Below, piece by piece: positions 5,481-44,380 of a stretch of 64,000 nt of DNA. How positions within the stretch are numbered: the first letter of the stretch is position 1; each line of letters starts with the position of its first letter. A program made the position numbers and the translations under genes. The notes beneath the pieces are model-generated. The model worked only from the letters and a program-made list of their open reading frames with translations, was not told the DNA's origin and ran no database searches. The stretch spans positions 1,962 through 65,961 of the forward strand of contig JACPKP010000007.1 of assembly GCA_016186955.1 (NCBI GenBank). Direction: 5' to 3'. This stretch comes from Candidatus Daviesbacteria bacterium. Its GTDB lineage: Bacteria; Patescibacteriota; Microgenomatia; Daviesbacterales; UBA10151.

Positions 5481-6902
<1,422 letters not shown>

Positions 6903-17100: not shown

Positions 17101-17540
17101 GGAAAGCGCAAATGGGAGGCCAAAGGTTGGGGGAGATGGAGGTTTGGGCGCTTGAAGCATACGGCGCTGCAAATATATTACAGGAAATGTTGACTATCAA
17201 ATCTGATGATGTAGTCGGAAGGGCCAAAGCATTTGAGGCGATAGTCAAAGGGACAGAGATCCCGCAGGCTTTGATACCGGAGTCATTTAAGGTTTTGGGC
17301 AAAGAATTGCAGAGCCTGGCTGTATCGGTAGAGCCTCAGGGTGTGCAGATTGTCAGCGCTCCAGCTGTTGTGGGTTTGGATGATTCAGCTGCCGCAAGTG
17401 ATGATACCAAGCTAAAGGAAAAGAAAGAGTTGGAAGAGTTCAAAGAGGCGCTTGAAGTCACTGATGTTGGGGATGTTGCTGAATTGGAGAGTGAATCAAG
17501 CCCGATGGAGATTGTTGATGTTCCCAAAACATATGAATGA
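14151..17540 (+). CDS. rpoB: DNA-directed RNA polymerase subunit beta
   Basis: Full-length RpoB hallmarks ([25 protein letters not shown] etc.). The likely start is the ATG at 14151 rather than the ORF-track 14109. Confidence 0.95.
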
Positions 17541-20500
17541 CCTACTTGATTTTGAAAGCTTAAAAGTATCAATTGCCAGCCCTGAGGTAATCAGGGGGTG
17601 GTCTTTTGGTGAAGTTACAAAACCTGAGACTATCAATTACCGTACCTTAAAGGCTGAGAAAGATGGGCTTTTCTCGGAAAATATTTTTGGGCCTACCAAA
17701 GATTTTGAATGTTATTGCGGTAAGTACAAGAGGATCCGTTACAGGGGTGTAATCTGTGATAAGTGCGGGGTTGAGGTAACGCAGTCAAAGGTTAGGCGGG
17801 AGAGGATGGGTCATATCTCCCTTGCTACCCCTGTTGCACACATATGGTTTGTCAAAGGTGCTCCTTCCAAAATCTCACTGGTTTTGGACCTGACAATGAA
17901 AAACCTGGAGTCAGTGATATATTTTGCATCATATATGGTGGTGGAAATTGACAGTGAAGGGAAACAGCAAGCTTTAGAACATTTGGCTAGTCAACTCGCG
18001 GACAAGAAAGCGCTGACAGTCCAAAACCTGGACAGGGCTATTGGTGAGGTAGAGAAAAATCTTGAGCAAATCCTGAAGGAATTAAAAAAGAAACTGAAAG
18101 AGCATGAAAAATTTGAATTGGCTGCTTCTGAAGAAGAATTAAAGACCCGCCAGTTTGTTGCAAGCCTAAGGGATGGCAACCAAGTTGAGTTGGGCCAGTT
18201 GGAAGGTATATACAAGGTTGTTACTGATTTGACAAACAGCATTGTACCTCTCAGGCTTCTTTCTGAAGATGAGTATTATAAACTGCAGGAGTATGGCGTA
18301 GCTGATTTTCTCAAAGTGGGTATGGGCGCAGAGGTCCTTTTGGAGGTTTTACAAAGAATTGACCTTGATAAACTGGCTGCTGAATTGAGGATAGAAGTCC
18401 AAAAATCTTCAGGGCAACGCCATATTAAAGCTACAAAAAGGCTGCGTTTAGTTGAAGGGATGCGCAAATCTAAAATCAGCCCTGCATGGATGGTGTTGAC
18501 AGTTTTGCCTGTATTACCGCCTGACCTGCGGCCTATGGTGCAGCTCCCGGGGGGCAGGTTTGCAACAAGTGATTTAAATGACCTGTACAGACGGGTTATC
18601 AACAGGAATAACAGGTTAAAAAGGTTGATTGAGCTGGGCGCTCCCGAAATTATTTTAAGGAATGAAAAACGGATGCTGCAGGAGGCCGTTGATTCTTTGA
18701 TTGACACCAATACCAGGACAACCAGGAGGATTGGAGGCCACCAGTTGCGTTCCCTCTCTGATATGTTGCGCGGTAAACAAGGCAGGTTCAGGCAAAACTT
18801 ATTGGGTAAAAGGGTTGATTACTCCGGCAGGTCAGTTATTATTGTCGGGCCTAAACTTAAACTTCATCAGGTGGGTGTGCCAAAAGAGATGGCGCTTGAG
18901 GTGTTTAAACCGTTTGTTTTAAGGGAGTTGATCTCGCGCGGTCTGGCATCAAATGTGAAAGGTGCAAAAAATATCCTGGAATTTAGGCCGCCGGAAGTTT
19001 GGGATATCCTGGAAGAAGTTATTGAAAACCACCCGGTGCTCATTAACAGGGCCCCTACACTTCACAGGCTTGGGATACAGGCATTTTACCCGGTATTGAC
19101 AGACGGTGATGCAATCCAGATCCACCCGTGTATTTGTGCAGGGTTTAATGCAGATTTTGACGGGGATCAGATGGCCATACATGTGCCGTTATCTGAAAAA
19201 GCCAAAGCTGAAGCCAGGGAGCTGATGATGGCTAAAGAAAATATCTTAAAACCGGGTGACAGCTCGCCTGTCAATATGCCGAACAAAGAGATGGCGCTTG
19301 GTTGTTTCTACATAACTTCGATAGATAAAAAACTGGAGCCATCCGAAAAAATTTACTCCGAGCAGGAAGCGTTGCTGGCCTACCAGACCAATAAATTGCA
19401 GGCAAGAAGGCTGATAAAATGTTATATCCAGGACAAATTGTTAGAGACTACTGTCGGCAGGATTTTATTTAACAAATTTTTGCCCAAAGAGCTGCAATTT
19501 CTTAATGAAAACATATCGCAAGCCTGGATTGTCAAAATTATTATGAAAGCTTTCAAAACTTTTGAGAAATCTGAAATCGCCAAACTGATTGATGACATTA
19601 AAGATTTTGGTTTTTGGGGGGTAACTATTTCAGGACTATCGCTGGCTATTTCAGATAATAAAATTATCCCTGAAAAACCTAAGCTGATCGCTCAGGGGGA
19701 TCAAGAGATTGCGGAGATTGAAAATAACCTGGCAAAAGGACTCATTACAAATGAAGAAAGACGGGCCTTAGCCCAAGAGGTTTGGACTAGGATTGGTGAG
19801 GAGATAGTCAGGGGGACATTTGCCTCGATAGATGCTGATAGCCCGATCCAGATTATTATGCAGTCAGGGGGAGCCAGGGCTACTACTGCCCAAATTGCCC
19901 AGACCTCAGGCATGAGAGGGTTTTCGGTTGACCCAACCGGAAAGATTGTAGAGCTTCCTACGAAATCCAATTACAGGGAAGGGTTAGGTGTATTTGAATA
20001 CTTTACTTCCTGCAGGGGCGCCAGAAAAGGTGTTGCAGATAGGGCTATCAGGACTGCAGATGCAGGGTATTTGACCAGAAGACTGGTTGATGTTTCCCAC
20101 GATGTAATTATCAGGATCGAAGAATGCGGTACAGACCAGGGGATAAGTCTTGAAGTTTCAAAAGAGAATATCCCATCAAACAATTCAAGATTTTTAGGCA
20201 GGAAGACTCTAAACAAGGTAGTCGATCCCAAAACAAAGAAAACAATTATTGGAAGTGATTCCTACATTGAAGAGAATGAGGTTGTTGAGCTTTTTAAAAG
20301 CAATGTGGCAGAGGTGACTATCCGTTCTCCCCTGACATGCAAGGCTAAAATTGGACTTTGTTCAAACTGTTACGGGTTAGATCTATCAAGCAGGAAGCCG
20401 GTCCAGTTGGGGACTCCGGTTGGTGTAGTTGCAGCCCAAGCTATAGGTGAACCGGGCACCCAGTTGACGATGCGGACTTTTCATACCGGTGGAGTTGTCG

Positions 20501-21213
20501 GAGTGGATATAACCCAAGGATTGCCAAGGATAGAAGAGTTATTTGAAGCGAGAAGCCCCAAAGTTGCAAGCCCGGTTTCCGAGATCGCCGGAAAGATAAC
20601 TCTGGTTGATTCAGACCAGGGCAGGATTGTACGGGTGAGAACCACATCCAAGCCTCATGAAGAACGCGAATATAATATTCCCCCTTCAGCAGAGTTATTG
20701 GTTGAAGATGGTAATTTGGTAGCAGCCGGCAGCCCGCTGGCATCAGGGCATCTGGAAATTAATGAGGTTTTAAGAGTGAGGGGTTTGAGGGAGGCGCAAA
20801 GGTATATAGTGGGCCAGGCAAGGGAGGTGTATGAGTCGCAAGGGGTGCACATCCATGAGAAACACTTTGAGGTGATTGTACGCAAGATGTCTGACAAAGT
20901 TAGGATTGAATCCCAGGGTGATGCTGTGCTTTTGCCTGGAGAGATTGTAGATAGGAACAGGTTTGAGGATGAAAATACCAGGGTGCTGGCTGAAGGCGGG
21001 GAACCTGCTACAGCAGGGGTTATAATCTTGGGGATTACCAGGTCCTCGCTTCAGACAGAGAGTTTTCTTTCTGCAGCCTCATTTCAGGAAACCACTACTG
21101 TTTTGGCAGATGCTGCATCATCCGGTAAGGTGGACAAGTTGCTTGGGCTCAAAGAAAATGTTATCATTGGACGATTAATACCAACTAGCCCCGAACGGGC
21201 GAAGATGGAGTAA
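17533..21213 (+). CDS. rpoC: DNA-directed RNA polymerase subunit beta'
   Basis: Zn-finger [35 protein letters not shown] catalytic motif, trigger loop. The ATG at 17533 overlaps the rpoB stop (ATGAATGA). Confidence 0.95.
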
Positions 21214-21699: not shown

Positions 21700-22173
21700 A
21701 TGAGATCAGGAAAAATTACAAAGAGAAAATTAGCGCCAGACCCGGTATATAATTCAAAACTTGTCACCCGTTTTATCAACAGGGTGATGTTTGACGGAAA
21801 AAAAACAGTTGCCCAAAACCTGGTGTACAAAGCTTTAGAACAAATTGAAAAAAGCGGCAAAAACCCGGTGCAGACCTTTGAGACAGCTATTGCTAATATC
21901 TCCCCCAGGATGGAAGTCAGGCCCAGAAGGGTGGGGGGAGCTTCCTACCAGGTGCCAACTGAGGTGCGGGGTGACAGGAGGGAAGCTTTGGCAATACGAT
22001 GGTTGATCACAGCCGCCAAATCCCGTTCCAACAAGGAATTCCACACTTTCTCGGAAAAATTGGCTGCAGAATTTTTGGCAGCTGCTGAAAACCAGGGTGC
22101 AGCCATTAAGAAAAAAGAAGATATTTCCAGGATGGCTGAAGCTAACAAAGCTTTCGCTCATTTCAGATGGTAA
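21700..22173 (+). CDS. rpsG: 30S ribosomal protein S7
   Basis: Typical S7 sequence; directly follows rpsL. Confidence 0.9.
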   Translation: MRSGKITKRKLAPDPVYNSKLVTRFINRVMFDGKKTVAQNLVYKALEQIEKSGKNPVQTFETAIANISPRMEVRPRRVGGASYQVPTEVRGDRREALAIRWLITAAKSRSNKEFHTFSEKLAAEFLAAAENQGAAIKKKEDISRMAEANKAFAHFRW

Positions 22174-22174
22174 T

Positions 22175-22366
22175 ATGAAAGAATTGACAAGAGATTTAAG
22201 CACGAGACAGGAAGCTATCAAAAACAATTTGAGTGATTTCAAATCTGATTATATGAATTTGCCTTTAAAGTGGAGAGTGGTGGGCACTGTTGCCTTTTTT
22301 GGATCAGCAATTGCAGCTGGAACTGGATTAGGGATTGCAGTAAGTATAGCCAAGTTATATTTTTAG
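22175..22366 (+). CDS. small hypothetical membrane protein (C-terminal TM)
   Basis: The ATG at 22175 immediately follows the rpsG stop. C-terminal VVGTVAFFGSAIAAGTGLGIAVSIA is hydrophobic. Confidence 0.3.
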   Translation: MKELTRDLSTRQEAIKNNLSDFKSDYMNLPLKWRVVGTVAFFGSAIAAGTGLGIAVSIAKLYF

Positions 22367-22376: not shown

Positions 22377-22401
22377 AATCCCGCCCCCGGGTAATCCTAG
22401 G
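22377..22401. repeat. X-repeat copy 0 (AATCCCGCCCCCGGGTAATCCTAGG)
   Basis: Related copies at 23724-23749 and 24431-24456. Confidence 0.5.
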
Positions 22402-22525
22402 CGCAACTTATGAAAGAACACCTACCAGACTTTAATCCTAAAACTGCTGTTTACATTGAAACAGGAGGCGATAGTGAAGTTTATCAAGTTGGGTTGGTGA
22501 TCTGATAATGTGATAAAATCTGGGT

Positions 22526-23383
22526 ATGGGTCCTGATGAAGAGACTGTGGAACCAGGGTTAGAAACAGAGGAATTGGCCCAAAAGATAAACCCCTTTTGG
22601 GAACAGCCCTATCAGTTGGCAAGAGCAGTTGCCAGAAGATGGAGAAAACCCGAGGCGAAAACAGAGATAGAACCTACTATTGCGTCTACTCACCAGGAAG
22701 ATATCCTTTCAACTAGAGATAAAAAAAACAAGCGGGAATTAGGAGCAGATAGCGCTAATGTTGTACTATTTGTTGAGCTTGAAGATGATGGCTCAGCAAT
22801 ATACAAACCCGTAAGTGGAGAGCAGCCTTACTTAAGACATGGTATTGAAGCAGGGACTTATTATCAAAGAGAACGGGCAGCATACCTAGTAGATAGGTTT
22901 TTAGGTCTCGGTTTAGTTCCACCAACCGTAATACGTGAATTAGATGGTGAGATTGGGAGTTTGCAGCAGTTTATTCCAGAAACAACGGGCAGTTGGGGTG
23001 TGGATCTTTCTCAACTACAAGAAGATTTATATCAACTTTGGGTTTTTGATTATATTATTTGGAATACAGATAGACATTCAGGTAATTTACTTTTTCAGGG
23101 TAATAAGCTTTTCGCAATCGATCATGGTCTGTCTTTTGGGAGTGAGTGTCGTATGTTCATGAGGCATTTTTATGACATTGCCGCTCCCAAACAACTGGTT
23201 GGTCTGCTGGAGCAATTTTTAAAAGATGACAAAAGCAAAAAAATTCTACAAGAACTACTTGAGGAGTTGCTCAGTGAAGATGAGGTAAAGGCTTGTGTGA
23301 GAAGGATTGAACATATCGGTTCTAAATTAATCAAAAATGGTATGATCAAACTTAATGAAGATAGCATTTTCAATCCTGAATAA
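22526..23383 (+). CDS. PI3K/PI4K-like atypical kinase-fold protein
   Basis: Catalytic-loop-like IWNTDRHSGNLLF (DRHxxN) and IDHGLSFG (DFG-equivalent). Upstream AIYKP beta-strand lysine and a conserved Glu in QRERAAYLVDRF. Confidence 0.45.
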   Translation: MGPDEETVEPGLETEELAQKINPFWEQPYQLARAVARRWRKPEAKTEIEPTIASTHQEDILSTRDKKNKRELGADSANVVLFVELEDDGSAIYKPVSGEQPYLRHGIEAGTYYQRERAAYLVDRFLGLGLVPPTVIRELDGEIGSLQQFIPETTGSWGVDLSQLQEDLYQLWVFDYIIWNTDRHSGNLLFQGNKLFAIDHGLSFGSECRMFMRHFYDIAAPKQLVGLLEQFLKDDKSKKILQELLEELLSEDEVKACVRRIEHIGSKLIKNGMIKLNEDSIFNPE

Positions 23384-23388
23384 CACAA

Positions 23389-23643
23389 ATGGCTTATGTA
23401 GAGATCTATAAATTAAATAATGATGGTTCGCAAAAGATTTTGGCTGTTTGCAGGCAGCTTGGGGAAGAGGTGGTTTGTGAAGGAGAGGAAAAGTTCATTG
23501 AATATTTAAATAAAGAGGGGATTAATGATTACAATTCCCCATCCCCGAAAAAATTATTCCCAAAAGACGGTAGGTTGTTTCTTGAACAATTAAAGTACAA
23601 TTTCAAATCAGGATACCTAAATGCCACTGATTTAAAAGAATGA
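23389..23643 (+). CDS. hypothetical protein
   Basis: ORF only; 84 aa; no recognisable motif. Confidence 0.3.
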   Translation: MAYVEIYKLNNDGSQKILAVCRQLGEEVVCEGEEKFIEYLNKEGINDYNSPSPKKLFPKDGRLFLEQLKYNFKSGYLNATDLKE

Positions 23644-23652
23644 ACCGCGTTA

Positions 23653-23719
23653 GGCACAAAAGGCGTCCCCTTTTGAGGCTAAATTAATTTATACCCCCTT
23701 GTTTTAACTGTAACTATTT
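23653..23719. repeat. Y-repeat copy 1: 67-nt exact duplicate of the 3' end of the regulator gene (24481..25785)
   Basis: Identical to 24457-24523. Its reverse complement encodes EIVTVKTRGYKLI*. Confidence 0.7.
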
Positions 23720-23723
23720 TTAA

Positions 23724-23749
23724 AATCCCACCCCCTGGGTGGTCCTGAG
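23724..23749. repeat. X-repeat copy 1 (variant, CCCACC-CCCT-GGGTGG hairpin)
   Basis: AAAATCCCACCCCCTGGGTGGTCCTGAG. Confidence 0.5.
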
Positions 23750-24449
23750 TATAGGTTTCCTTTCATCGAAAAGTTGCGGGCACAACAATTATAAGATATC
23801 ATTCTTGTTTATGGAGAGAATCAGTGTGCAGGAAGCAGGGTTAGAAGGTTTACCCAGGATTAGGGGACATCATCTAAATAAACTGAAAGAGCTCTATGTT
23901 TTTATGAATACTAAAAGGGAATCTTTATCCGAATCAGGATATCAAGGTTCTTTGTCAGGAGAAATGGAAGCTTTAATCAAATTTTTTATTCAGGAACATA
24001 GCAGCGATTTGTTGACATTTGTAGATCCTGCAACCCGTACTTTTGGTTTATCTCAAGAGTGGATGATGAGTTATATAAACGATACAATTGGAGGTATTGA
24101 AGCCGAGAAAGTTAAAATATACAATCAAAAAACATATGAAGCGATTGTAAAATATATTTCATATCCGGCAAGCCAACAAGTTCTATTGACAGTTACCCCG
24201 GATTTTATTTGCAGATTATGTTTAGTGGGAACACATTGTTTAAAAAGCTCAAAATTGATGCCACTTGATTATAGAGAAATCAGAGAATTTTCAAAGTTCC
24301 AAATAAACAGGAGAAGGGATATGCAAATTTATACGGAGGAATTTAAATTTAGCGATCGCCTGAAGCCATTAATCACTAAAGTAGTGTTAACCACCTTTGG
24401 AGATATTAGGTTTTACTTATCTTTTGGTGGAATCCCACCCCCGGGTTAG
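23739..24449 (+). CDS. hypothetical protein on a repeat-flanked cassette
   Basis: ORF bracketed by X/Y repeats. The true start may be MERISVQ at 23811. No recognisable domain. Confidence 0.4.
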   Translation: MVLSIGFLSSKSCGHNNYKISFLFMERISVQEAGLEGLPRIRGHHLNKLKELYVFMNTKRESLSESGYQGSLSGEMEALIKFFIQEHSSDLLTFVDPATRTFGLSQEWMMSYINDTIGGIEAEKVKIYNQKTYEAIVKYISYPASQQVLLTVTPDFICRLCLVGTHCLKSSKLMPLDYREIREFSKFQINRRRDMQIYTEEFKFSDRLKPLITKVVLTTFGDIRFYLSFGGIPPPG

Positions 24450-24523
24450 TCCTAGGCACAAAAGGCGTCCCCTTTTGAGGCTAAATTAATTTATACCCCC
24501 TTGTTTTAACTGTAACTATTTCA
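24431..24523. repeat. X-repeat copy 2 plus Y-repeat copy 2 (native 3' end of the regulator gene)
   Basis: AATCCCACCCCCGGGTTAGTCCTAGG followed by the 67-nt Y sequence. Confidence 0.7.
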
Positions 24524-25785
24524 TAAGAGCTGTTTTGTTGCTTCAGCTTACTCCGGACTCTTGCTACCAGCCTGTCTATTGCCCAATCGGAGACTCCCAA
24601 TTCCTCTTCTTCAGGCCAGACTGCTTCAATTATGGCTTCCCGCTCACATATCTGGTTTAAGTTATTTTGTAGACAAGTAAACAACAGATGTTCTTTTTTA
24701 CTGAGTTCCAACGGTGGCATTTCCAGCGGTTTGGCCCCATTTGTCTGTCTTGATTTGATGAAATTTTCAAAGATCGGGCTAAAAATCCGGGTTTTACCTT
24801 TTTCAGTAGCAACCAGGCCGGTATCCCAAAGGTATTTACTTGAAAGTTGCCCATCTTTTGAAATTTTTTCTTTGGAGACAATCTGAATCAGTGTATCTTG
24901 CTCTGTTTCATTTAAACTGTCCCAGAGTTCTTCGGATTGTAAAGCTATCCTTTCATCCTCTATCAAGGCCGGAAAAAGTTCAAAATTTTTGTTTAAAATT
25001 TTGATTTTTTCTGAGAGAGTAATCAAGGCGAGCAGCAGGTATTGGATATATCCGCCGGAAAACGCAAATAACTCTTCCTTAAATTTTTTGGGAAGGTGCA
25101 AGTTATACTTTCTGGTGTTAACTTTATAGATAGTTTCCAGATCTTTGGGCTCTGCTGTTTTAACATACATCTGGTATACGATTAGGGCGGGAGAGGCTTG
25201 GCTGAATGCCTTGGGTGCAAGCTGGTCTAAACTCCTAAAACTTGTCAAAACATAAGTTAACTGGTGGTTGGTTGCATCATACAGGCTTTCAAGGTTGGCA
25301 AAAAGCTCAGGCGTGACAGCATCTTTAATACGGTCAAAATGGATTAAAAACATTGTCGGGATAAAGCCTGCCTGTGTGATTTTTATCAAGCTTAACCTGA
25401 CACAATCAAATAATAAAAACAGGTCTTTTGATTGAATTGAATCCAAAAAAAGGTTCTCGACATATTTTTTAATTTTAGGTTCCAAATTTAAGCGCTCGCA
25501 GTTATCAACAATCCTTTTTAAAGTTAACATCCAAAATGGGAAAACCTCCCTTTCTACCAAATCATTTAGATCCACATGGATAAATAAATGTTTTTTTCTA
25601 TTTGGAATGTGTTTGTCTATCACCTTTTTATGGCTTAAGAAAAACCTTAAGAAATTGCTGATGCCAACCCGGCGCATACCGATCATAATGATTGTCTGGC
25701 GGTTTTTGAGATAATATCCTAAATTTTGGGAGATCTCTTTCCTGAAGGTTTTTGGGTAATACGATTCCAGGACCGTGTTTACCAT
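24481..25785 (-). CDS. transcriptional regulator: degenerate AAA/STAND-like NTPase domain fused to C-terminal OmpR/PhoB-type winged helix
   Basis: N-terminal IIMIGMRRVGISNFL resembles a Walker A with Lys replaced by Ile. Walker B-like LFIHVDLND. The C-terminus EAVWPEEE...IDRLVARVRSKL...IVTVKTRGYKLI is trans_reg_C-like. Confidence 0.6.
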   Translation of the reverse strand: MVNTVLESYYPKTFRKEISQNLGYYLKNRQTIIMIGMRRVGISNFLRFFLSHKKVIDKHIPNRKKHLFIHVDLNDLVEREVFPFWMLTLKRIVDNCERLNLEPKIKKYVENLFLDSIQSKDLFLLFDCVRLSLIKITQAGFIPTMFLIHFDRIKDAVTPELFANLESLYDATNHQLTYVLTSFRSLDQLAPKAFSQASPALIVYQMYVKTAEPKDLETIYKVNTRKYNLHLPKKFKEELFAFSGGYIQYLLLALITLSEKIKILNKNFELFPALIEDERIALQSEELWDSLNETEQDTLIQIVSKEKISKDGQLSSKYLWDTGLVATEKGKTRIFSPIFENFIKSRQTNGAKPLEMPPLELSKKEHLLFTCLQNNLNQICEREAIIEAVWPEEEELGVSDWAIDRLVARVRSKLKQQNSSYEIVTVKTRGYKLI

Positions 25786-26632: not shown

Positions 26633-28801
26633 ATGGCTGTTACAAAGACTAAGAGAGATTACCCCCTTGATAGGATACGTAACATAGGCATCATTGCCCA
26701 TATTGATGCCGGGAAGACCACCACAACAGAGCGGATCTTATTTTATACCGGTAAAACTTATAAAATAGGTAATATTGATGAAGGCACTACCACAACTGAT
26801 TGGATGGAACAGGAAAAGGAACGTGGTATTACAATAGTTTCTGCTGCTATAACCGCTTCCTGGACTGCCAAGTCAGGACCTTTTCAAGACCAGGAGATGA
26901 GGATTAATTTAATTGATACCCCCGGGCATGTGGATTTTACAGTGGAGGTAGAGCGGTCCTTGCGGGTTTTGGACGGAGGGGTGATTGTTTTGGATGCAGC
27001 CTCTGGTGTGCAGTCCCAGACCGAGACTGTCTGGAGGCAGGCCAATAAATACCATGTTCCTCTGATTGCATTTGCCAACAAGATGGATGTGGTTGGGGCT
27101 GATTTTTTGGGCACAATCCAGTCAGCCAGAGATAGATTAGGGGCAAACGCTATCGCCTATAACCTGCCGATTGGTGCGGAAACCAGTTTTAAAGGGGTTG
27201 TGGATTTGTTGGGTAATGATGAGAAGGGTGCTTTCGCGATTGTTTGGGAGCAAAGTGGTTCTGATTTTGATCCCAGTGGTTCAAAATTTAACATAACAGA
27301 TATTCCAGAAGATATGAAAATTGCAGTTGAGGAGCACAGAAATAAATTGATTGAAGAGATTTGTGCTACGGATGAAGTTTTATTGGAACAGTTTCTTAAT
27401 GGTAAGAAGATTGCTGTTAATGATTTGAAGTTAGCTTTGAGAAAAGCAGTAATTGCTGAAAAAATTGTCCCGGTTATGGCAGGTTCTTCACTTCGCAATA
27501 AAGGGGTGCAACCAATGCTTGATAATGTGGTTAATTTTTTGCCTTCCCCCCAGGATTTGCCTGAGATTAAAGGGCTTGACCCTAAAACCCAAGAGGAAAA
27601 GATTTTTCAGAATGTAAAAGATGCCCCTTTGGGCGCTTTGGCTTTTAAAATCCAGGTTGACCCTCATGTTGGGAGGCTCACTTATGTTAGGGTTTATTCT
27701 GGGATTTTAAAATCAGGTTCATATCTTTACAACTCAACAAAAGATGTAAAAGAGCGGGTAGGGAGGGTGCTTTTAATGCACGCCAATGATAGGGAGGAGA
27801 TTGATGAAGCTTTTGCAGGGGAAATTATAGCAGTAGTGGGGTTGAAAGATACTGTGACTGGAGATACGCTTTGTGATGATTCAAACCCGATTGTTTTGGA
27901 ATCCATTACTTTTGCAGAACCTGTGATCTCTCTTGCTATTGAACCCAAAACTAAATCAGACCAGGAAAAACTGGCTTATTCTTTGCAAAGACTGGGGGAA
28001 GAAGACCCAACATTTCGGGTAAAATCTAACCCTGAGACAGGACAGACTATTATCTCCGGTATGGGAGAGCTCCATCTGGAGATTATTGTGGACAGGATGA
28101 AAAGGGAGTTTAAGGTGGAGGCGAATATTGGAGAGCCTCAGGTTGCATACCGGGAAACTATCCAAAAAGAAGCAAGGGGTGAGGGTAAGTACATCAGGCA
28201 GACTGGTGGCAGAGGCCAATACGGACATTGCTTGCTTAGGATTGAACCTCTTCCCAGGGGCCAGGGACGGGAATTTGTCTCAGAAGTTGTGGGTGGGGCA
28301 ATACCAAGGGAGTTTATTCCGGCTATCGAAAAAGGGGTTATTGAAAAAGAAGACACCGGAATGTTGGCCGGTTTTCCGGTAACGGATATCAAAGTTGCGG
28401 TTTATGACGGGTCATATCATGATGTTGATTCATCTGAGATTGCATTTAAAATTGCCGGATCCTTAGGGCTTTCCGAGGCTGCCAAAGAGGCGGATATGAT
28501 ACTTTTGGAGCCTATTATGAAGGTGGAAGTGACAACGCCTGAGGAATTTATGGGAGATCTGATTGGGGATTTATCTTCAAAACGGGCACAGATCCTGGGT
28601 ACTGAGAAAAGGCATAATTCAAGCGTGATTAATGCTTTGGTGCCTCTTGCAGAACTTGGAGGTTATATAACTGCCATAAGGTCAATGTCACAAGGTCGTG
28701 CTTCAGCCTACATTGAGCCCTCCCATTATGAGAGTGTGCCAAGTAACATTACCCAAAAAATTGTTGCATCTTCAGGGTTCACTGGCAGAGTTGAGCATTA
28801 A
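26633..28801 (+). CDS. fusA: elongation factor G
   Basis: AHIDAGKTTTTERIL, DTPGHVDF, NKMD; full length. Confidence 0.95.
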   Translation: MAVTKTKRDYPLDRIRNIGIIAHIDAGKTTTTERILFYTGKTYKIGNIDEGTTTTDWMEQEKERGITIVSAAITASWTAKSGPFQDQEMRINLIDTPGHVDFTVEVERSLRVLDGGVIVLDAASGVQSQTETVWRQANKYHVPLIAFANKMDVVGADFLGTIQSARDRLGANAIAYNLPIGAETSFKGVVDLLGNDEKGAFAIVWEQSGSDFDPSGSKFNITDIPEDMKIAVEEHRNKLIEEICATDEVLLEQFLNGKKIAVNDLKLALRKAVIAEKIVPVMAGSSLRNKGVQPMLDNVVNFLPSPQDLPEIKGLDPKTQEEKIFQNVKDAPLGALAFKIQVDPHVGRLTYVRVYSGILKSGSYLYNSTKDVKERVGRVLLMHANDREEIDEAFAGEIIAVVGLKDTVTGDTLCDDSNPIVLESITFAEPVISLAIEPKTKSDQEKLAYSLQRLGEEDPTFRVKSNPETGQTIISGMGELHLEIIVDRMKREFKVEANIGEPQVAYRETIQKEARGEGKYIRQTGGRGQYGHCLLRIEPLPRGQGREFVSEVVGGAIPREFIPAIEKGVIEKEDTGMLAGFPVTDIKVAVYDGSYHDVDSSEIAFKIAGSLGLSEAAKEADMILLEPIMKVEVTTPEEFMGDLIGDLSSKRAQILGTEKRHNSSVINALVPLAELGGYITAIRSMSQGRASAYIEPSHYESVPSNITQKIVASSGFTGRVEH

Positions 28802-28900
28802 ATTTGCATTTTTTTGTAAGTTGTATTAGTATATATATACTTAAATCTCCCGCAAGGACCAAAAGTCATTTGCGGGATTTTTTGTGCTATACTCATTTGC

Positions 28901-29455
28901 ATGAAACAAGCCCGCTGCGTGATTATTATTGATGGGAGTAACTTCTACTTCAAGTTAAAAGATTTGGATTTACATTATGAACTGCAATTTGATTTCTCTG
29001 GTTTTGCTAAATTGCTGGCTGGTAAGAATAAAATTGCGAGGTGTGTGTACTATGTGGGTGCGGTAAGAACAGATGGTACAAAACATACCCAAAAGTTGTT
29101 TAATAAGCAGCAGAAACTTTTTGCAAATCTCAAGAAACATAATTTTCAATATTCGCTTGGATATTTGTTGAAATCTGGCGGAAAAATGCATGAAAAAGGA
29201 GTAGATGTTAATATGGCTGTTGATATAGTTAAAGGTGCGCTAAAAGATGAGTTTGAACATTTTATTATAGTCAGCTCGGACACGGATTTGTTACCAGCTA
29301 TATTAGTAGTCAAAGAAGCGGGCAAAACTATTGAATATATAGGATTTTCTCATCAAGCAAGTTTGGCGATGGTAGCTAATTGTTCCGAATCCAGGTTATT
29401 GAAAAAAGAGGATTTACTACCTTTTGTAAGTCGCAAAATATCACCCAAAAAATAG
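28901..29455 (+). CDS. NYN-domain (LabA/PIN-like) nuclease-fold protein
   Basis: IIIDGSNF and FIIVSSDTDL motifs typical of the NYN/DUF88 PIN-like fold. Confidence 0.65.
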   Translation: MKQARCVIIIDGSNFYFKLKDLDLHYELQFDFSGFAKLLAGKNKIARCVYYVGAVRTDGTKHTQKLFNKQQKLFANLKKHNFQYSLGYLLKSGGKMHEKGVDVNMAVDIVKGALKDEFEHFIIVSSDTDLLPAILVVKEAGKTIEYIGFSHQASLAMVANCSESRLLKKEDLLPFVSRKISPKK

Positions 29456-29494
29456 TGGCATCCTCCGGGTTTACAGGCAGAGTAGAGCATTAAT
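29444..29494 (+). repeat. 51-nt synonymous-codon duplicate of the fusA 3' terminus (encodes TQKIVASSGFTGRVEH*)
   Basis: 9 of 51 nt differ from 28751-28801, all at synonymous third positions; out of frame with the NYN gene. Confidence 0.8.
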
Positions 29495-29877
29495 TATTTG
29501 AAATATTGCCTTTTACGATAAATTGCCCAGAACCAGAGTGTGCTTACGATGATAAGACTTAACCAAGCAGGTATATAAGAATAGGGCCAATATGCACCTG
29601 AAGAATTTTTGAAAAAAATAACCAAATAATCAAGAAATGATATTATCCAGCTAATTATTGATAAATAAATCCCCCACTTTTGAAATTTCCAAAGTCCGTA
29701 TATTAAGACAATTGCCACTAAGTTTACTAAGATCCTGTAGGGAAAATACCAAATAGGGTTGAAATTTTCAAGGTTTATTTGGTTAAATTTGAAGAAAATT
29801 AAGTAAAGGGAATATAAAACGGATAAAGAAAAAATAAATAGAACAATTGTTAAAAATTTGCCTCGCTCTTTTTTCAT
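29494..29877 (-). CDS. integral membrane protein (4 predicted TM helices)
   Basis: Highly hydrophobic and Trp/Tyr-rich, with TM segments throughout. Confidence 0.5.
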   Translation of the reverse strand: MKKERGKFLTIVLFIFSLSVLYSLYLIFFKFNQINLENFNPIWYFPYRILVNLVAIVLIYGLWKFQKWGIYLSIISWIISFLDYLVIFFKNSSGAYWPYSYIPAWLSLIIVSTLWFWAIYRKRQYFK

Positions 29878-29978
29878 ATAAACTAATTATAATATTAAAT
29901 TACACTTTTTACAAAGATTGTTTAAGAAAACGTTTTTCTTAAACATTACCCCTCTGATGTGGCAGGACAATTTTAATA

Positions 29979-30038
29979 TCACACCTCCGAGGTGTGATAA
30001 AAATAGCTGTTGACAAATTGGATACAAGCTCATAGAAT
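29979..30038 (+). promoter_or_regulatory. 19-bp palindrome TCACACCTCCGAGGTGTGA followed by sigma70 promoter TTGACA-17-TAGAAT
   Basis: Second copy of the palindrome. The -10 lies only ~8 nt before the ATG at 30046, suggesting a near-leaderless transcript. Confidence 0.45.
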
Positions 30039-30045
30039 CACTGGC

Positions 30046-30780
30046 ATGGAGAGCCAAGGTGCAGTGAAGAAAATTTCAAGAGTTAGAAAAACCATCATTG
30101 ATACCAAACCAGAACCTGTATCACAAATAGACTCCATACCCACTATTCAACTTCACTCAAAAAAAGATATTTTCAATAACCTCAATGAAGAAATAAAAAA
30201 ATTAAAAGATCAATTTGATATTTTGGAAAAAGAAATTACTGAAACAAGACAAGAGTGGGTTAAGGAACAAAGAGTTCATCAACAGGAGATGGAGGAAAGA
30301 GAACGTCAAGAGAATCTTGGAAGAAAACATGAGCAAGAGCTGTACCAGTATGAAACAAATTTGAATCATAAAAAAGCGGAAGATGAATTTAGTGACAAAA
30401 AAACTAAGTGGGAAAAGGAGCTTTTAGAGCGTAAAGATGAGCTTGCAAAAGATAAACAGGAATTAGCGGAATTAAGAAGCAAGGTAGCAGGTTTTGAACA
30501 ACAGCTTGTCAAAGCAGCAGATGGGGCATCTGAAGCGGCTAAAAAAGAGCTGGAATCTAGGTTTGAGAATGAAAAAAGATTATATGAGCAGCAAGTCAAG
30601 GCGGAAAAAGATGTACTCAATTTAAGGCTCAGCAATTTGACTGCTGATAATAGTAGGCAAGCTCATGAGATAGAAACTCTCAAAAAAGCTTTGGATGAAG
30701 CTACAAGACAGGTGAAGGAGATAGCGGTAAAAGTGATTGAATCAAACAGCGGTGTAATTAAAACCTCCTCTGCAGAATAG
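30046..30780 (+). CDS. coiled-coil protein (Glu/Lys-rich)
   Basis: Heptad-like EELKKL periodicity throughout. The ORF-track start at 30010 lies inside the promoter; the ATG at 30046 is preferred. Confidence 0.45.
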   Translation: MESQGAVKKISRVRKTIIDTKPEPVSQIDSIPTIQLHSKKDIFNNLNEEIKKLKDQFDILEKEITETRQEWVKEQRVHQQEMEERERQENLGRKHEQELYQYETNLNHKKAEDEFSDKKTKWEKELLERKDELAKDKQELAELRSKVAGFEQQLVKAADGASEAAKKELESRFENEKRLYEQQVKAEKDVLNLRLSNLTADNSRQAHEIETLKKALDEATRQVKEIAVKVIESNSGVIKTSSAE

Positions 30781-30834
30781 TTACTTTTAATGTGATCGTT
30801 TAAATATCCGTAGTATGGTAAAATAAATTTACGT

Positions 30835-31191
30835 ATGAATGAACAAGAGGTTAGTTTAGACCAACTAAAACAGATAATACGGGAAAAAGGCATAAATCCC
30901 GCCCCTGGCGCTAAACCCGGCAGTTTTACAGCATATGGAATCGTTTTAGGAAACCATGGATTAGCAGCTACGGAAGTTTTTTATGAAATTTATAAAAGAC
31001 TTAAACCTATCTTTGGAGAAGCGCTGCTGGATGGTTTTTCAACTTCTGCCGCGCATGCGGAACTGGGGAGATTTGAGCCTAAATTAGCGCCTTACTCCGA
31101 TGGAGAAACAGCCTGGCTTGAGGCTCAGAAATCAGAGCTGACTGTTTATTTAAAAAGCACACTGAAGCGGAGGAAACAGGTAGGATTGTAA
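30835..31191 (+). CDS. hypothetical protein
   Basis: ORF only; 118 aa. Confidence 0.35.
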   Translation: MNEQEVSLDQLKQIIREKGINPAPGAKPGSFTAYGIVLGNHGLAATEVFYEIYKRLKPIFGEALLDGFSTSAAHAELGRFEPKLAPYSDGETAWLEAQKSELTVYLKSTLKRRKQVGL

Positions 31192-31205
31192 GTGGCCGAG
31201 CCAAT

Positions 31206-32291
31206 ATGGTTGAGAATAAACCCCAAAAATTATGGTTGTACGATCAAACTATTGCAGGTGAAGGTTTGAGCCAAATTGTCCAAGATCTTCTGAAAGATGT
31301 CCCAAGTATCGGGCAGCCAAATATCTTTCCATTGGAGTGGCATGGTGATGCCCATGGAAAATTAGCAAAGCTTTATGAAACAGCAAAAGAACGTGCTTGG
31401 AATCCGGCTCAGGCGATTGATTGGAAAAAGTTGGATCCCAAAGACTTTACAAGAGAACAACGGTTGGGGGTAATGTATTGGTATTCAGTTTTGGCGAATT
31501 TCGACGGTTCGGGGCCTCCGGTTTTTGCTAAAGCAATGATAAAATCTTATGAAACACATGAACCTAATGAGCTTAGAAATGCATTTTTTTCAATAGCCCG
31601 GGATGAAGTAAACCATGAAGAGGTTTGTTACCGGACAGTTTCCAGGCTTTGGTCTCAAACCCCGACAGAATGGGACCCTCAAAATGACCTAGAAGCTTTA
31701 GCCTTGAGAAACATCCGTTGGCTTTATTATAACGGCGGTAGATATTGGAAAGGTTATTCCAAGGCTTTGGAAGAAAAATATCCGATGAGCGTACTTTTTT
31801 CTTCATTTATGATGGGAGAGGTTGCGGCCACAACCCTTTTTCACAACATGAGTAAGGCAGCCAAACATCCTGTTTTTGCCCAGGGGCTTAAAAAAGTTGG
31901 GCAGGATGAAGCTAGGCATATGGCAATTTGCCTGGCTGCGTTGGAGCATGAATATATGAAACTGACAGAAGAAGATAAACAGATGATTACTAAGCAGCTT
32001 CGGGCCGGGTTTGTATTTCTTTCCATGATTTTGTATGAACCGCCTGATGAATTTTGGAAGCTGCCCCCGGAATTTTTGGAGGTTCATAGAAAATTAGAAC
32101 AGTTAGCAAGGGAAGCAGGTTTGGGAGTGGCAACCTTAAGCGAAAAGAAACAAGTTTGGCAGGAGGCAATGCTTAAAGTAAAAACAGTAGTAAACTCCTA
32201 TGGAGTGGAATTTCCAGCCATGCCTGAAGTAGGTATCACCGGAAAGGAGGTTGTAAATATCAGCATGGAAGATATAATTCCTGTATTCTAA
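31206..32291 (+). CDS. ferritin-like diiron-carboxylate oxygenase superfamily protein
   Basis: Two E...ExxH pairs (E-THE...DEVNH and GEVAA...DEARH) spaced as in diiron enzymes of the R2/AurF/desaturase type. Confidence 0.5.
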   Translation: MVENKPQKLWLYDQTIAGEGLSQIVQDLLKDVPSIGQPNIFPLEWHGDAHGKLAKLYETAKERAWNPAQAIDWKKLDPKDFTREQRLGVMYWYSVLANFDGSGPPVFAKAMIKSYETHEPNELRNAFFSIARDEVNHEEVCYRTVSRLWSQTPTEWDPQNDLEALALRNIRWLYYNGGRYWKGYSKALEEKYPMSVLFSSFMMGEVAATTLFHNMSKAAKHPVFAQGLKKVGQDEARHMAICLAALEHEYMKLTEEDKQMITKQLRAGFVFLSMILYEPPDEFWKLPPEFLEVHRKLEQLAREAGLGVATLSEKKQVWQEAMLKVKTVVNSYGVEFPAMPEVGITGKEVVNISMEDIIPVF

Positions 32292-32292
32292 T

Positions 32293-32778
32293 ATGGAAAG
32301 AATGGTTGGAAAAGCAGTCAGAACCTTAGATGACAAAACAACTGTTTTGAACTTTGACAGTATAAAGAGAGGCGACAGGTTTGTGATGGAGCAGGAAGTT
32401 ACAAGGGAAAAGGTGATGCTTTTTGCACAGGCTTCCGGTGATTTCAGTCTTTTACACTCTGATCCTCAATATGCATTAAATACCCGTTTTGGCAAGGTTA
32501 TTGCCCATGGAATGCTGACAGGGGGTTTTATTTCTGCAGCGCTTGCGGGTTTAGGTAAAGACGCAATGACTGCAGTCTATCTGGAGCAGTTTTTAAAATT
32601 CCACAGGCCGGTTGTAGAAGGGGATATTTTAAGGGTTTATTTAAAAATCACTTGTAAAAATAACACAGACAAAAGCCTTTGTTTGACGACAGATTGTTAC
32701 AACAGAAGAGATCGATTGGTAGTCAGCGGTAGGGCAAAAATCCGTTTGGATCCATACCCATATCCTCAAGCTGCCTGA
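32293..32778 (+). CDS. MaoC-like (R)-specific enoyl-CoA hydratase/dehydratase (hotdog fold)
   Basis: ASGDFSLLHSDPQYA...GKVIAHGML motif. Its start overlaps the stop of the diiron gene. Confidence 0.7.
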   Translation: MERMVGKAVRTLDDKTTVLNFDSIKRGDRFVMEQEVTREKVMLFAQASGDFSLLHSDPQYALNTRFGKVIAHGMLTGGFISAALAGLGKDAMTAVYLEQFLKFHRPVVEGDILRVYLKITCKNNTDKSLCLTTDCYNRRDRLVVSGRAKIRLDPYPYPQAA

Positions 32779-32821
32779 AAATTCAGGATGATCGGGATCA
32801 CGCAAAATTTCAAACTAACTA

Positions 32822-32850
32822 TTGCATTTTGCGCTAGATTATTATATTAT
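32822..32850 (+). promoter_or_regulatory. candidate tuf promoter TTGCAT-17-TATTAT with long leader
   Basis: Good hexamers, followed by a CCAGCTT-TGGA-AGCTGG hairpin and a ~140-nt leader ending in an AAGGA SD. Confidence 0.4.
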
Positions 32851-32991
32851 TTGGTATAAGCCCAGCTTTGGAAGCTGGATTTTAATGGGTTGGTACCCAT
32901 GTCATTTCGATACGCAAGTGAGAAATCTTATATAGAAATTAGATTGCCACGTCGCTCGTAAACTCACTCCTCGCAATGACAAAGGAAACAT

Positions 32992-34176
32992 ATGGCAGAT
33001 TCTAAAAAGTACGAAAGAACTAAACCGCACGTAAATGTCGGAACCATGGGTCATGTTGACCATGGTAAAACTACCCTGACTGCAGCGATTACCAAAGTTT
33101 TGGCAGGTAAAGGTTTGGCAGAGGTTAGAACTGTAGACCAAATTGATGCAGCCCCGGAGGAAAAAGCCCGCGGAATCACCATCAATATTTCCCATCAGGA
33201 ATATGAGACCGAAAAACGCCACTATGCCCACATCGATATGCCGGGTCATGCTGACTATATCAAAAACATGATTACCGGAGCAGCGCAGACAGACGGAGCT
33301 ATTCTGGTAGTTTCTGCCCCGGATGGCCCAATGCCTCAAACCAGGGAACATCTTTTGCTAGCCCGTCAGGTGGGGGTTCCGGCGATTGTGGTCTACCTTA
33401 ATAAAACAGATATGGTTGATGACCCTGAGCTTTTAGATTTAGTGGAAGAAGAGGTCAAAGACTTGCTTAAAAAATATGAATATGACCCCAATTCACCAAT
33501 AATCAGAGGCAGCGCTAAAAAAGCTTTGGAAGGCGATCCTGAAGCAGTTAAATCTATTGAAGCTTTAATGGAAGCTGTTGATACATGGATCCCAACCCCT
33601 GTTAGGGATAAAGATAAGCCGTTTTTGATGGCTGTTGAAGATGTATTTTCCATTAAAGGGCGTGGTACAGTGGCTACAGGCAGGATTGAAAGAGGGGTTG
33701 TCAAAATTAATGAGGAAATTGAAATTGTGGGTATCAGGCCTACCAAAAAGAGCGTTGTGACAGGCATTGAGATGTTCCATAAAATGCTCGACCAGGGTGA
33801 AGCAGGGGATAATGCCGGGATACTATTGCGGGGTGTTGAGAAAGATGATATTGAAAGAGGGCAGGTTTTGGCAAAACCCGGTTCAATCACCCCTCACAGT
33901 GAATTTGAGGCTGAAATTTATGTTTTGAGTAAGGAAGAGGGTGGAAGGCATACCCCGTTTTTTAAAGGCTACAGGCCGCAATTTTACATCAGGACTACTG
34001 ATGTGACAGGTGAGGTGCAGCTTCCTGAGGGGGTTGAGATGGCTATGCCTGGGGACACAGTTAAAATTGTAGGAAAATTAATCACCCCGGTTGCTATGGA
34101 GGATGGTTTGAGGTTTGCAGTCAGGGAAGGCGGGAAAACAGTAGGGGCAGGGGTCATTACCAAGATAATTGCTTAA
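32992..34176 (+). CDS. tuf: elongation factor Tu
   Basis: [22 protein letters not shown]; full length. Confidence 0.95.
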
Positions 34177-35526: not shown

Positions 35527-36324
35527 ATGATCCAGACATTACTGGGCACTAAAAAATTTATGACTTCAACTTATGATTCCCGCGGCAGGCGGGTGGGTGC
35601 AACAGTGGTTGAAATGAACCCGAATATGGTCACGCAAATTAAAGATAAGGAAGGGAAAGACGGATACGATGCTGTGCAATTGGGTTATGGAACTAAAAAG
35701 AGCGTAAAAAAACCCCAGATTGGTCATGCAAAAAAAGCCGGAGTTGAGGGTAAGATCAGGTGGATGCGTGAAGTTAGGGCTAGCGAGACTGTAAAACCTG
35801 GCGACCAGATCAGTTTGGGCCAGGTTTTTTCTGTTGGTGATGCAGTTAAAATAACAGGGGTAAGCAAGGGTAAAGGGTTTCAGGGTGGAGTCAGAAGGCA
35901 TGGATTCCATGGAGGGCCAAAAACCCATGGCCAATCAGACCGCCACCGGGCGCCAGGTTCCATCGGGGCCGGTACAACTCCGGGCCGGGTTTACAAGGGT
36001 AAAAGAATGGCAGGGCATATGGGAGTGGAGAGGGTGAGTTATAAAGGTTTGGAGGTTGTCAAAGTGGATAAACAAAACAACCTGTTGACTATCAAAGGCG
36101 GTGTGCCTGGTCCGGCAGGAGGATTTGTAATAGTTGAAAAACAAGGACGGATAAAAGGTTATACGCCACCACCTGAGGAAAAACCTGAAGAGGAAGAATT
36201 AGAGTCAAGTGACAACACCTCGGAGGTGAAGTCAGAAGAGCCAAAAGTTGAAGCAACAGAAGAGGTTGAATCTACTGAAAGTTCCGATGAGGTAAAGGAG
36301 GAAACAGGAAATGGCAGTAATTAA
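35527..36324 (+). CDS. rplC: 50S ribosomal protein L3 with acidic C-terminal tail
   Basis: L3 core (GVSKGKGFQGGVRRHGF); about 50 aa of Glu/Ser-rich extension. Confidence 0.9.
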   Translation: MIQTLLGTKKFMTSTYDSRGRRVGATVVEMNPNMVTQIKDKEGKDGYDAVQLGYGTKKSVKKPQIGHAKKAGVEGKIRWMREVRASETVKPGDQISLGQVFSVGDAVKITGVSKGKGFQGGVRRHGFHGGPKTHGQSDRHRAPGSIGAGTTPGRVYKGKRMAGHMGVERVSYKGLEVVKVDKQNNLLTIKGGVPGPAGGFVIVEKQGRIKGYTPPPEEKPEEEELESSDNTSEVKSEEPKVEATEEVESTESSDEVKEETGNGSN

Positions 36325-37182: not shown

Positions 37183-37692
37183 ATGACAGCTGTTATATTA
37201 AAACCGTTGGTTACGGAAAAATCAATGTCGCTTGTCAAATCAGGAATGTTTACATTCCTGGTGGATAAAAACGCCACCAAAAGTCAGATTGGGAAAGCTG
37301 TTTCCGGGAGATTTGCAGTGGATGTTTTAAGTGTCAGTACAGTGAATATGAAGGGTAAAACCAAACTGCAAAAGAGCAGAAAAGGGTATTTTCAGAAACC
37401 ATCGTTTAAAAAAGCAATAGTCCAGCTTAAAAAAGGGCAAAAAATTGCTTTGTTTGAATCAGCAGAGAAAGAAGAAGTAGAAGTGAGGACAGCAGAAGGT
37501 GAAGTAGTTGGCAAAACCACAGAAAAAAAGAGTTTATTGGGGAGGACAAAGATAAAGATCAGCAAGCTGTCTCCTGTGGAGATTGAACAAAATACAGCAG
37601 TCAAAAGCCCGCCTGCCGGACGGGCAGGTCAAAAGGCAAAAGTTAAAAGTACAAGTAAAAAATTAAAAGTAAACAAGAAAGGAGCTAAGTAA
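37183..37692 (+). CDS. rplW: 50S ribosomal protein L23 with C-terminal extension
   Basis: L23 core; the C-terminal 70 aa are Lys-rich and contain the palindromic element. Confidence 0.85.
   Translation: MTAVILKPLVTEKSMSLVKSGMFTFLVDKNATKSQIGKAVSGRFAVDVLSVSTVNMKGKTKLQKSRKGYFQKPSFKKAIVQLKKGQKIALFESAEKEEVEVRTAEGEVVGKTTEKKSLLGRTKIKISKLSPVEIEQNTAVKSPPAGRAGQKAKVKSTSKKLKVNKKGAK
37599..37645. repeat. palindromic element copy in the rplW 3' extension (GCCCGCCTGCCGGACGGGCAGG flanked by GTCAAAAG)
   Basis: Encodes VKSPPAGRAGQKAKVKS. Confidence 0.7.
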
Positions 37693-42870: not shown

Positions 42871-42886
42871 ATAGAAAGGAAAAAAG

Positions 42887-44374: not shown

Positions 44375-44380
44375 GGAACT

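Follow-up and report, generated by a model that had tools for sequence, protein, structure and literature searches.

Campbell-type (insertion-duplication) integration and homology-facilitated illegitimate recombination (HFIR) are known from natural transformation, and integrative and conjugative elements or islands that restore the end of a protein gene are represented by SXT in prfC and SCCmec in rlmH. In bacteria, few gene strings are as conserved as the str operon (rpoC-rpsL-rpsG-fusA-tuf), which usually forms one contiguous block. Here, we describe a stretch of 64,000 nucleotides (nt) of a Candidatus Daviesbacteria bacterium from the candidate phyla radiation (CPR; assembly GCA_016186955.1, contig JACPKP010000007.1; hereafter, the window), in which an exact 69-nt direct repeat within this operon, termed Y, encloses one cargo open reading frame (ORF), orf212, and the second copy of Y is the 3′ end of a neighboring regulator gene. 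We consider it about an even bet (probability roughly 0.5) that this Y-cargo-Y arrangement is the recombination scar of a short homologous exchange combined with an illegitimate joint, and not a self-mobile element.

The logic of such an event is already known, both from insertion-duplication/HFIR events and from additive islands with partial tRNA scars. The term homology-facilitated illegitimate recombination is used in this context in a passage of PMC6382021. As in those events, a short shared segment would undergo a single homologous exchange and, with one illegitimate joint added, would end up as a direct repeat around the insert; a gene would remain intact if the shared segment extended to its 3′ end. 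The present case differs in that it is reconstructed from natural genomes, the segments are only 29 to 69 nt long, the pattern recurs at essential str-operon genes of the CPR, and the copies look like different alleles. In additive islands at tRNA genes, such as tycheposons (bioRxiv 10.1101/2020.12.28.424599), a full and a partial target 3′ end likewise flank the insert, and newer inserts push older cargo away from the gene so that partial copies accumulate as scars; here, by contrast, the cargo has no integrase, the targets are protein genes of one operon and not tRNAs, no conserved attachment core is detectable, and the inserts hold zero to four genes. Partial C-terminal duplications beside homing endonuclease ORFs in fungal mitochondria (PMC6279837) share the order of gene, inserted ORF(s), and displaced partial C-terminal copy, but our locus shows no homing endonuclease family, has identical rather than recoded repeats, and lies on a bacterial chromosome. 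Integron cassettes are also single-gene units in one orientation at a fixed site with a short recurring border motif, comparable to the motif X described below. Unlike them, the locus has no attC architecture in X or Y and no IntI, its cargo has its own promoter-like region, and its repeat is the end of a neighboring gene.

The Y repeat and the variable str-operon gap

By exact matching within the window, the two copies of Y lie at 23651-23719 (Y1) and 24453-24521 (Y2) and are 100% identical. The initial annotation had reported a 67-nt exact repeat at 23653-23719 and 24457-24523; the repeat and its first position were right, but the second copy of that string lies 2 nt lower, at 24455-24521, and identity runs 2 nt further left in both copies, giving 69 nt. 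No additional copy occurs in the 64-kb window even when up to 3 mismatches are allowed, 100 shuffles gave 0 matches, and the exact repeat is not due to chance. An exact search for Y in Joint Genome Institute (JGI) metagenomes also gave 0 matches. The coding part of Y2 comprises 41 nt, namely, the stop codon, 12 codons (IVTVKTRGYKLI), and 2 nt of a Glu codon; the initial annotation had read this copy as encoding the last 13 codons of the regulator. The remaining 28 nt lie downstream of the regulator and include the hairpin CAAAAGG-CGTCC-CCTTTTG, which had already been noted and which was recovered by folding. Y1, a stranded duplicate of the same 41 coding nt and 28-nt hairpin region, is placed in intergenic DNA.

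The regulator itself (24481-25785, minus strand, 434 amino acids [aa]) is full length and aligns through residue 434, the last residue of its relatives, so that the initial picture of an insertion beside an intact gene, with a duplicate end left stranded, holds. The direct repeat is thus the terminal segment of an adjacent conserved gene that is itself complete, as in a Campbell-type or HFIR scar; it is equally a repeat of attachment-site size that includes the 3′ end of its target (69 nt here, 29 to 60 nt in the sister cases described below). Since the two copies are identical, compared with 78 to 98% identity in the other scars, the insertion at the regulator appears recent, as had been proposed, and the Y pair is the youngest example among the scars. 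There are accordingly 0 differences between Y1 and Y2 to class as synonymous or not.

The gene order in the window is rpoC (17452-21213), rpsL, rpsG (21700-22173), a 63-aa ORF, X1, a kinase-like gene, an 84-aa ORF (orf84), Y1, X2, orf212, X3, Y2, the opposite-strand regulator, a GreA_N-like ORF, and fusA (26633-28801), followed by a NYN-domain gene, five more ORFs, and tuf (32992-34176). Because of the insertions between rpsG and the regulator and between fusA and tuf, the str operon of the window is interrupted twice. A search with the regulator yielded seven homologous loci in a genome scan and 80 more in a metagenome scan. Ten of these are syntenic and represent nine genomes, as L003 and L053 are 99.7% identical. 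In all ten loci, from nine other Daviesbacteria-type genomes, the order rpoC-rpsL-rpsG-gap-regulator (opposite strand)-GreA_N-like-fusA is kept. The gap between rpsG and the regulator end ranges from 468 to 2521 bp with almost no cargo in common, its contents including a phosphoribosyl pyrophosphate (PRPP) synthetase-like protein, an EamA transporter, Sua5/YrdC, a helix-turn-helix protein, AAA-like proteins, and small orphans. This gap, bounded by rpsG and the convergently transcribed regulator, holds different genes in different Daviesbacteria lineages. The fusA-tuf interval is likewise variable, from ~145 nt (L034) to 4.2 kb, and the str operon here has at least two or three gaps collecting unrelated genes.

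Could the repeat be an artefact of assembly or of a mixed population, the true state being an empty site (orf84-Y-regulator) plus an 802-bp circle, or another location, of Y-X2-orf212-X3? Run-level Logan contigs (k = 31) from five Sequence Read Archive (SRA) runs carry rpsG through orf84 with 0 to 4 single-nucleotide polymorphisms, and all end at 23680, 30 nt into Y1. Runs carrying this organism are SRR12113383, -384, -420, -424, and -430. Because all five stop at this point, Y has two left-hand contexts in five samples, and the same two contexts in five independent samples argue against an artefact. On the other hand, a k = 31 graph cannot separate the integrated form from an empty site plus an 802-bp circle, and no run-level contig on record carries the exact cargo product. 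Likewise, no exact product of the regulator, of either cargo form (236 aa or 212 aa), or of the GreA_N-like ORF was found in the run-level assembly records, in which the regulator end was probably cut at unitig breaks. The default k list of MEGAHIT rises to 141; if it applied, the integrated form would be favored: single k-mers would span the 69-nt repeat, and the contig would require reads joining orf84-Y-X2 and X3-Y-regulator. The locus-tag range, together with the SRR1211 run series, suggests that the contig derives from the groundwater study of He et al., in which MEGAHIT 1.2.9 was used with default parameters (PMC7906910). Given also the six analogous scars in independent assemblies from other studies, we regard an artefact as very improbable.

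Gene-end scars at three str-operon genes

The related loci and the window (~780 kb) were screened for direct repeats in which one copy holds the stop codon of a long ORF. Six further scars were found: one at the regulator (L006), three at fusA (window, L053, and L059), and two at rpoC (L007 and L047). The initial annotation had likened the Y arrangement to the fusA/NYN case and had suggested looking for it in related genomes; the same gene-end logic indeed recurs six more times at three genes, including a second regulator scar. The latter, in L006, is 35 nt long and 86% identical and encloses an ORF (ORF97) and PRPP synthetase. Among 75 loci inspected for copies of the regulator end downstream of the gene, only the window and L006 have one, apart from unrelated intergenic repeats.

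In the window, the functional 3′ end of fusA (28745-28801, plus strand) has a remnant at 29437-29493 (plus strand) that agrees with it at 48 of 57 nt, every one of the 9 differences being synonymous. The enclosed NYN-domain gene (28901-29455, plus strand; Pfam NYN, 2e-17) has its last 19 nt inside the remnant. The fusA scar of L053 encloses a 115-aa membrane protein, and that of L059 encloses a 276-aa ORF, a Phd/ParE pair, and a 201-aa ORF. The three fusA remnants do not share a starting point: counting the stop, they begin 57, ~45, and 29 nt ahead of the gene end. The rpoC scars, 53 to 60 nt long and 94 to 98% identical, enclose only ~60 to 70 nt and no gene. The window has no equivalent of these, as its rpoC ends at 21213 and its rpsL begins at 21216. 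Overall, scars other than Y are 78 to 98% identical, and seven scars fall in ~180 kb of str-operon loci versus none that is clear in ~600 kb of other loci.

At the rpoC scars (L007:5067-5246 and L047:9624-9802), the last 53 to 60 nt of the gene are repeated ~120 nt downstream, and the second copy ends a 32- to 35-aa ORF in both loci. Read by eye, L007 and L047 differ there at about one-quarter of positions, the copies within each genome differ only synonymously, and the spacer is also homologous. This pattern means concerted evolution, selection, or repeated events.

Across the five gap-free scars, 22 of the 23 differences between working end and remnant are synonymous, where ~25% would be expected at random (P ~3e-12). 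Therefore, the remnants are not copies decaying in place but evolved as working gene ends, under protein constraint: they are pieces of a second allele, or copies that alternate as the working end.

Pfam scans of ~35 cargo ORFs from three gaps in the window and nine related genomes, with smaller ORFs outside the scan, gave no match to an integrase, transposase, nuclease, or other recombinase family. Codon identity at conserved residues over the last 13 to 19 codons was compared with that of the gene body (regulator, 0.44 versus 0.46; fusA, 0.53 versus 0.45; rpoC, 0.40 versus 0.52), and no excess synonymous conservation was found at these three gene ends; no nucleotide-level attachment core is visible. 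The dedicated cassette mechanism implied by the initial annotation finds no backing: this and related cargo have no recombinase, the gene ends have no conserved core, and outside the window the X motif occurs only upstream of one homologue of the cargo gene.

These results also bear on site-specific integration by a tyrosine or serine recombinase acting in trans, from the genome or a helper, with Y as the attL/attR block of a single-gene degenerate or satellite element that brings a replacement gene end, in the manner of integrative elements at the ends of tRNA or protein genes. Serial integration of this kind would fit the 29- to 69-nt repeats and the stacking of the newest insert nearest the gene (bioRxiv 10.1101/2020.12.28.424599), the restriction of the duplications to 3′ ends, and the shared starting codon of Y and the L006 remnant; synonymous-only differences are expected as well if the element-borne copy becomes the working end. 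However, the scanned cargo of nine genomes and three gaps includes no integrase, and rpoC, the regulator, and fusA are unrelated targets, for which several specificities would be needed. The differing starts of the fusA remnants, the lack of excess synonymous-site conservation at the gene ends, and the rpoC cases with ~60 to 70 nt enclosed and no gene are also hard to accommodate. We consider this explanation unlikely, though one that deserves real weight.

The newest cargo gene and its borders

The newest cargo gene, orf212 (23811-24449, plus strand), corresponds to the 236-aa ORF initially noted between the Y copies. That ORF is present (23739-24449, from a GTG), but both the NCBI annotation and the homologues place the start codon at the ATG at 23811, for a product of 212 aa. 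An identical hypothetical protein is encoded by a Candidatus Daviesbacteria metagenome-assembled genome, and three closer and ~57 distant relatives were found among 1.8 billion cluster representatives. Matches to DUF1284 (PF06935) stay below the 25-bit cutoff (P0001, E = 0.03, 15.1 bits; P0002, E = 0.0012, 19.6 bits) and reach E ≤ 0.01 in 6 of 35 relatives, which may indicate at most a faint resemblance, below the gathering score. In the 35-sequence alignment, R18, H20, H21, D91, G94, C134, G140, H142, and C143 are invariant, and C137 is nearly so. The AlphaFold model (pLDDT 92) has no PDB match at E ≤ 0.001 and predicts, with confidence, a novel fold. Nothing suggests that orf212 is a recombinase or nuclease.

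A free-standing homing endonuclease cassette was considered and rejected, as orf212 has no nuclease family or fold. The broader homing-type explanation, in which a cargo nuclease cuts cassette-free gene ends and repair copies the cassette together with a replacement end, as happens with free-standing homing endonuclease genes in fungal mitochondria, draws on the cob and atp6 cases, which have the same architecture (PMC6279837), and on the sister fusA case, which carries a NYN (PIN-like nuclease-fold) gene and a fusA end recoded by 9 synonymous changes. Yet Y1 and Y2 are identical, and hence nothing is recoded or protected at the regulator end; orf212 lacks a nuclease family or fold, other cargos are a PRPP synthetase, a membrane protein, and a Phd/ParE pair, and the rpoC scars have no ORF-sized cargo. 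Homing therefore seems to us a highly improbable origin for the repeat.

Behind the orf212 homologue of L096 lies a convergent gene that matches Exo_endo_phos in Pfam, and L001 and L097 have matching sequence, read by eye, directly downstream of the homologue. In the window, this convergent partner is absent, and X3 provides the final six codons of the cargo ORF together with its stop; the cargo segment therefore looks cut out of another context at gene borders. A scan for consensus promoters and terminators performed no better than on shuffles.

The X motif lies at each of these borders. The initial annotation had placed a 26-nt X at 22377, between the Y copies, and before the second Y; its consensus as written matches exactly only at 24431-24456, with 1-nt indels in the copies at 22377 and 23724, but a 12-mer core, AATCCCRCCCCC, is exact at 22377, 23724, and 24431 and nowhere else in the 64 kb, with one 1-mismatch match at 30895. 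A T-run comes before X1 (22377-22406, plus strand; AATCCCGCCCCCGGGTAATCCTAGGCGCAA), whose last 9 nt are those with which Y begins. X2 (23724-23749, plus strand; AATCCCACCCCCTGGGTGGTCCTGAG) contains a small hairpin, CCACCC-CCT-GGGTGG, and sits just upstream of a TATAGG box that, read by eye, is common to the window and the homologue locus L097. X3 (24431-24461, plus strand; AATCCCACCCCCGGGTTAGTCCTAGGCACAA) supplies the end of orf212 and shares 9 nt with Y2. X1 and X3 together define a unit of ~31 nt that extends 9 nt into Y (TAGGCRCAA); they align over 27 of 30 bases with one 1-nt gap (score 40, versus a shuffle maximum of 25), and no deeper Y remnant follows X1 past those 9 nt. X2 and X3 are direct, not inverted, repeats. 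The older cargo pair (22526-23643) is itself bracketed by the 9-nt direct repeat TAGGCRCAA, at the end of X1 and the start of Y1.

The search for further copies of X and Y that the initial annotation had called for produced one relative of X and no further Y in the window or the JGI metagenomes. X is absent from ~740 kb of related loci, and viral contigs held 0 matches to the X patterns, to the palindrome of L001, or to the cargo protein. The only relative lies upstream of the cargo homologue in L001, where an intact 23-nt palindrome (AATCCCACCCC-G-GGGGTGGGATT) is preceded by an extra half-site copy; L001 is also the only locus with a cargo homologue from the same sample series as the window. 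At L001:47-97, this reads as a tandem half-site plus a perfect palindrome with 11-bp arms (GCGTAATCCCACCCCGG GTGCGTAATCCCACCCC G GGGGTGGGATT), 155 nt upstream of the homologue. For the idea that X is a tRNA 3′-end remnant (AATCCCRCCCCCGGG), ARAGORN found only tRNA-Pro(GGG) in the window, with a different end, and tRNAs are nearly missing from the related loci.

Both sub-units of the gap start with a T-run and X and end with Y. This symmetry favors a history in which the entire gap (X-cargo-Y) was duplicated in tandem on a single chromosome and one of the two units later had its cargo replaced; tandem duplications at microhomologies are common. Such a history would nevertheless require the additional replacement to have left Y 100% identical, X1 and X2 differ far more than Y1 and Y2, and the two cargos share no similarity. 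For these reasons, we view a tandem origin as very improbable.

Two further candidates were rejected. Target duplications made by transposases are usually 2 to 15 bp, and a transposon or insertion sequence would have to be reconciled with a 69-nt duplication, which is too long, with X2 and X3 in direct and not inverted orientation, and with no transposase. An integron attC reading of GTTAGGC plus the Y hairpin fails against the attC definition used (57- to 141-nt imperfect inverted repeat with RYYYAAC ... GTTRRRY ends), as GTTAGGC lies on the 5′ side, the reverse of the attC order, and folding shows only short local hairpins. An integron integrase adjoining the array was not found among the neighbors, which are rpsG, the regulator, the GreA_N-like gene, and fusA.

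A proposed exchange and its meaning

We infer the order of events, the joint in the T-run, and the involvement of general recombination as follows. A 733-bp segment (X2, promoter-like region, orf212, and X3) would have been added on the regulator side of an older cargo (kinase-like gene and orf84) through (i) one homologous exchange within Y, i.e., the last 41 nt of the regulator and the hairpin, and (ii) one illegitimate joint between the ...CTATTT of Y1 and the T/A-run before X2, giving ...CTATTT followed directly by TTAAAATCCC. The event can be described equivalently as Campbell-type integration of a circularized fragment carrying Y and the cargo, as HFIR of incoming linear DNA, or as two gap alleles placed in series. 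As the region of homology extends to the stop codon, this exchange would keep the regulator complete and would leave a dead Y1 distal to the new gene. Host recombination functions would do the work, the cargo encoding none, and recombination between the two exact repeats would delete the cargo gene again. General recombination is favored by the three unrelated targets, the differing starts of the fusA remnants, the lack of a cargo recombinase, and the lack of excess synonymous conservation.

Several points weigh against this scar reading. The T/A-run at the Y1-X2 joint resembles the T-run before X1, but it is low-complexity sequence, and the microhomology is accordingly weak. A segment of 69 nt, and still more one of 29 nt, is short for a RecA-type exchange, and a donor allele (TM63-X-orf212-X-Y-regulator) was not found in Logan contigs or JGI metagenomes. 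Random illegitimate events should also leave long and 5′ remnants, but all the remnants are 3′ ends of 29 to 69 nt, and no 5′-end or long remnant appeared in the ~780-kb screen. This length range fits integrase attachment sites, typically ~40 nt, at which the newest insertion lies nearest the gene (bioRxiv 10.1101/2020.12.28.424599). The start of Y and of the L006 remnant at the same regulator codon hints at a site preference, and the scar reading does not account for the presence of X at every junction.

A bolder proposal is that cassettes are exchanged in Daviesbacteria, and perhaps throughout the CPR, by a recombinase-free or trans-served system, with single genes moving in and out at the 3′ ends of highly conserved str-operon genes by way of 30- to 70-nt gene-end repeats. 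Both copies would then stay translatable since either could become the working end after excision and re-integration, and the palindrome-derived X would mark cassette junctions, forming an integron-like platform on essential-gene ends. We consider this proposal improbable.

As for the neighboring genes, the left conserved border of the gap is rpsG (21700-22173, plus strand), which is syntenic and encodes ribosomal protein S7 (Pfam Ribosomal_S7 on an identical Logan gene). Directly after it lies the 63-aa ORF (22175-22366, plus strand), which has a hydrophobic C-terminal stretch, is called on Logan contigs L012, L013, and L015, and has no Pfam match. The older cargo consists of the 285-aa PI3/PI4-kinase-like gene (22526-23383, plus strand; Pfam PF00454, 6e-11) and the orphan orf84 (23389-23643, plus strand), which belongs to no family and has an identical product on Logan contigs of 5 sequencing runs. 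The kinase-like (HipA-like) protein matches TIGR03843 (SCO1664 family) at 9e-30 and 103.8 bits, below the 172.4-bit cutoff. The regulator, syntenic between rpsG and fusA and the right conserved border, has an ATPase-like N-terminal region and an OmpR/PhoB-type winged helix (Trans_reg_C, 3.5e-16; AAA_14 only at E = 0.0056, with 17.1 bits versus a 27-bit cutoff). No Rfam family was found between 21600 and 30000. In the fusA-tuf interval of the window (28802-32991), 4.2 kb of extra genes encode the NYN protein, a 127-aa membrane protein, a coiled-coil 256-aa ORF, a 118-aa ORF, an AurF/rubrerythrin-like 361-aa ORF (sub-threshold), and a MaoC dehydratase.

Other repeats were also observed. Between 42.5 and 49.5 kb, gene borders carry AT-rich intergenic families, up to 135 nt long and 94% identical (42589-43011, 44377-44510, and 49330-49461); they are of the type AAATTTTCAATTTAAAATTTACAATTTTCAATCAATGATTTAATG, and in some cases the hairpin CCTGTCTGCCGACAGG comes next. 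A unit of 65 nt, in which GTCAAAAG repeats surround a GC hairpin, CCCGTCTGCCGGACGGG, occurs three times (36323-36387, 37591-37655, and 47632-47696), twice inside called ORFs. A 24-nt inverted repeat (ATCACACCTCCGAGGTGTGAT; 6902-6925 and 29975-29998) is 96% complementary, with its arms 23 kb apart and each arm palindromic. Outside the window, five nonsyntenic regulator loci (L031, L032, L041, L050, and L064) have repeats rich in TCGGGAAT/TCGGTAAAT just downstream of the regulator paralogue, which recur 0.6 to 4 kb away in either orientation.

What is new here is the setting inside a CPR str operon, the recurrence at three essential genes without a visible recombinase, and the synonymous-only divergence of the repeats, which points to exchange between diverged alleles. 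The seven scars show a route of gene gain in which each insertion rebuilds the end of the neighboring essential gene. At the exact 69-nt pair, reads from a natural population could reveal the gene being gained or lost. If the pattern is general, short gene-end repeats would be a cheap marker, from sequence alone, of recent gene gain in uncultivated, reduced genomes without recognizable mobile elements.

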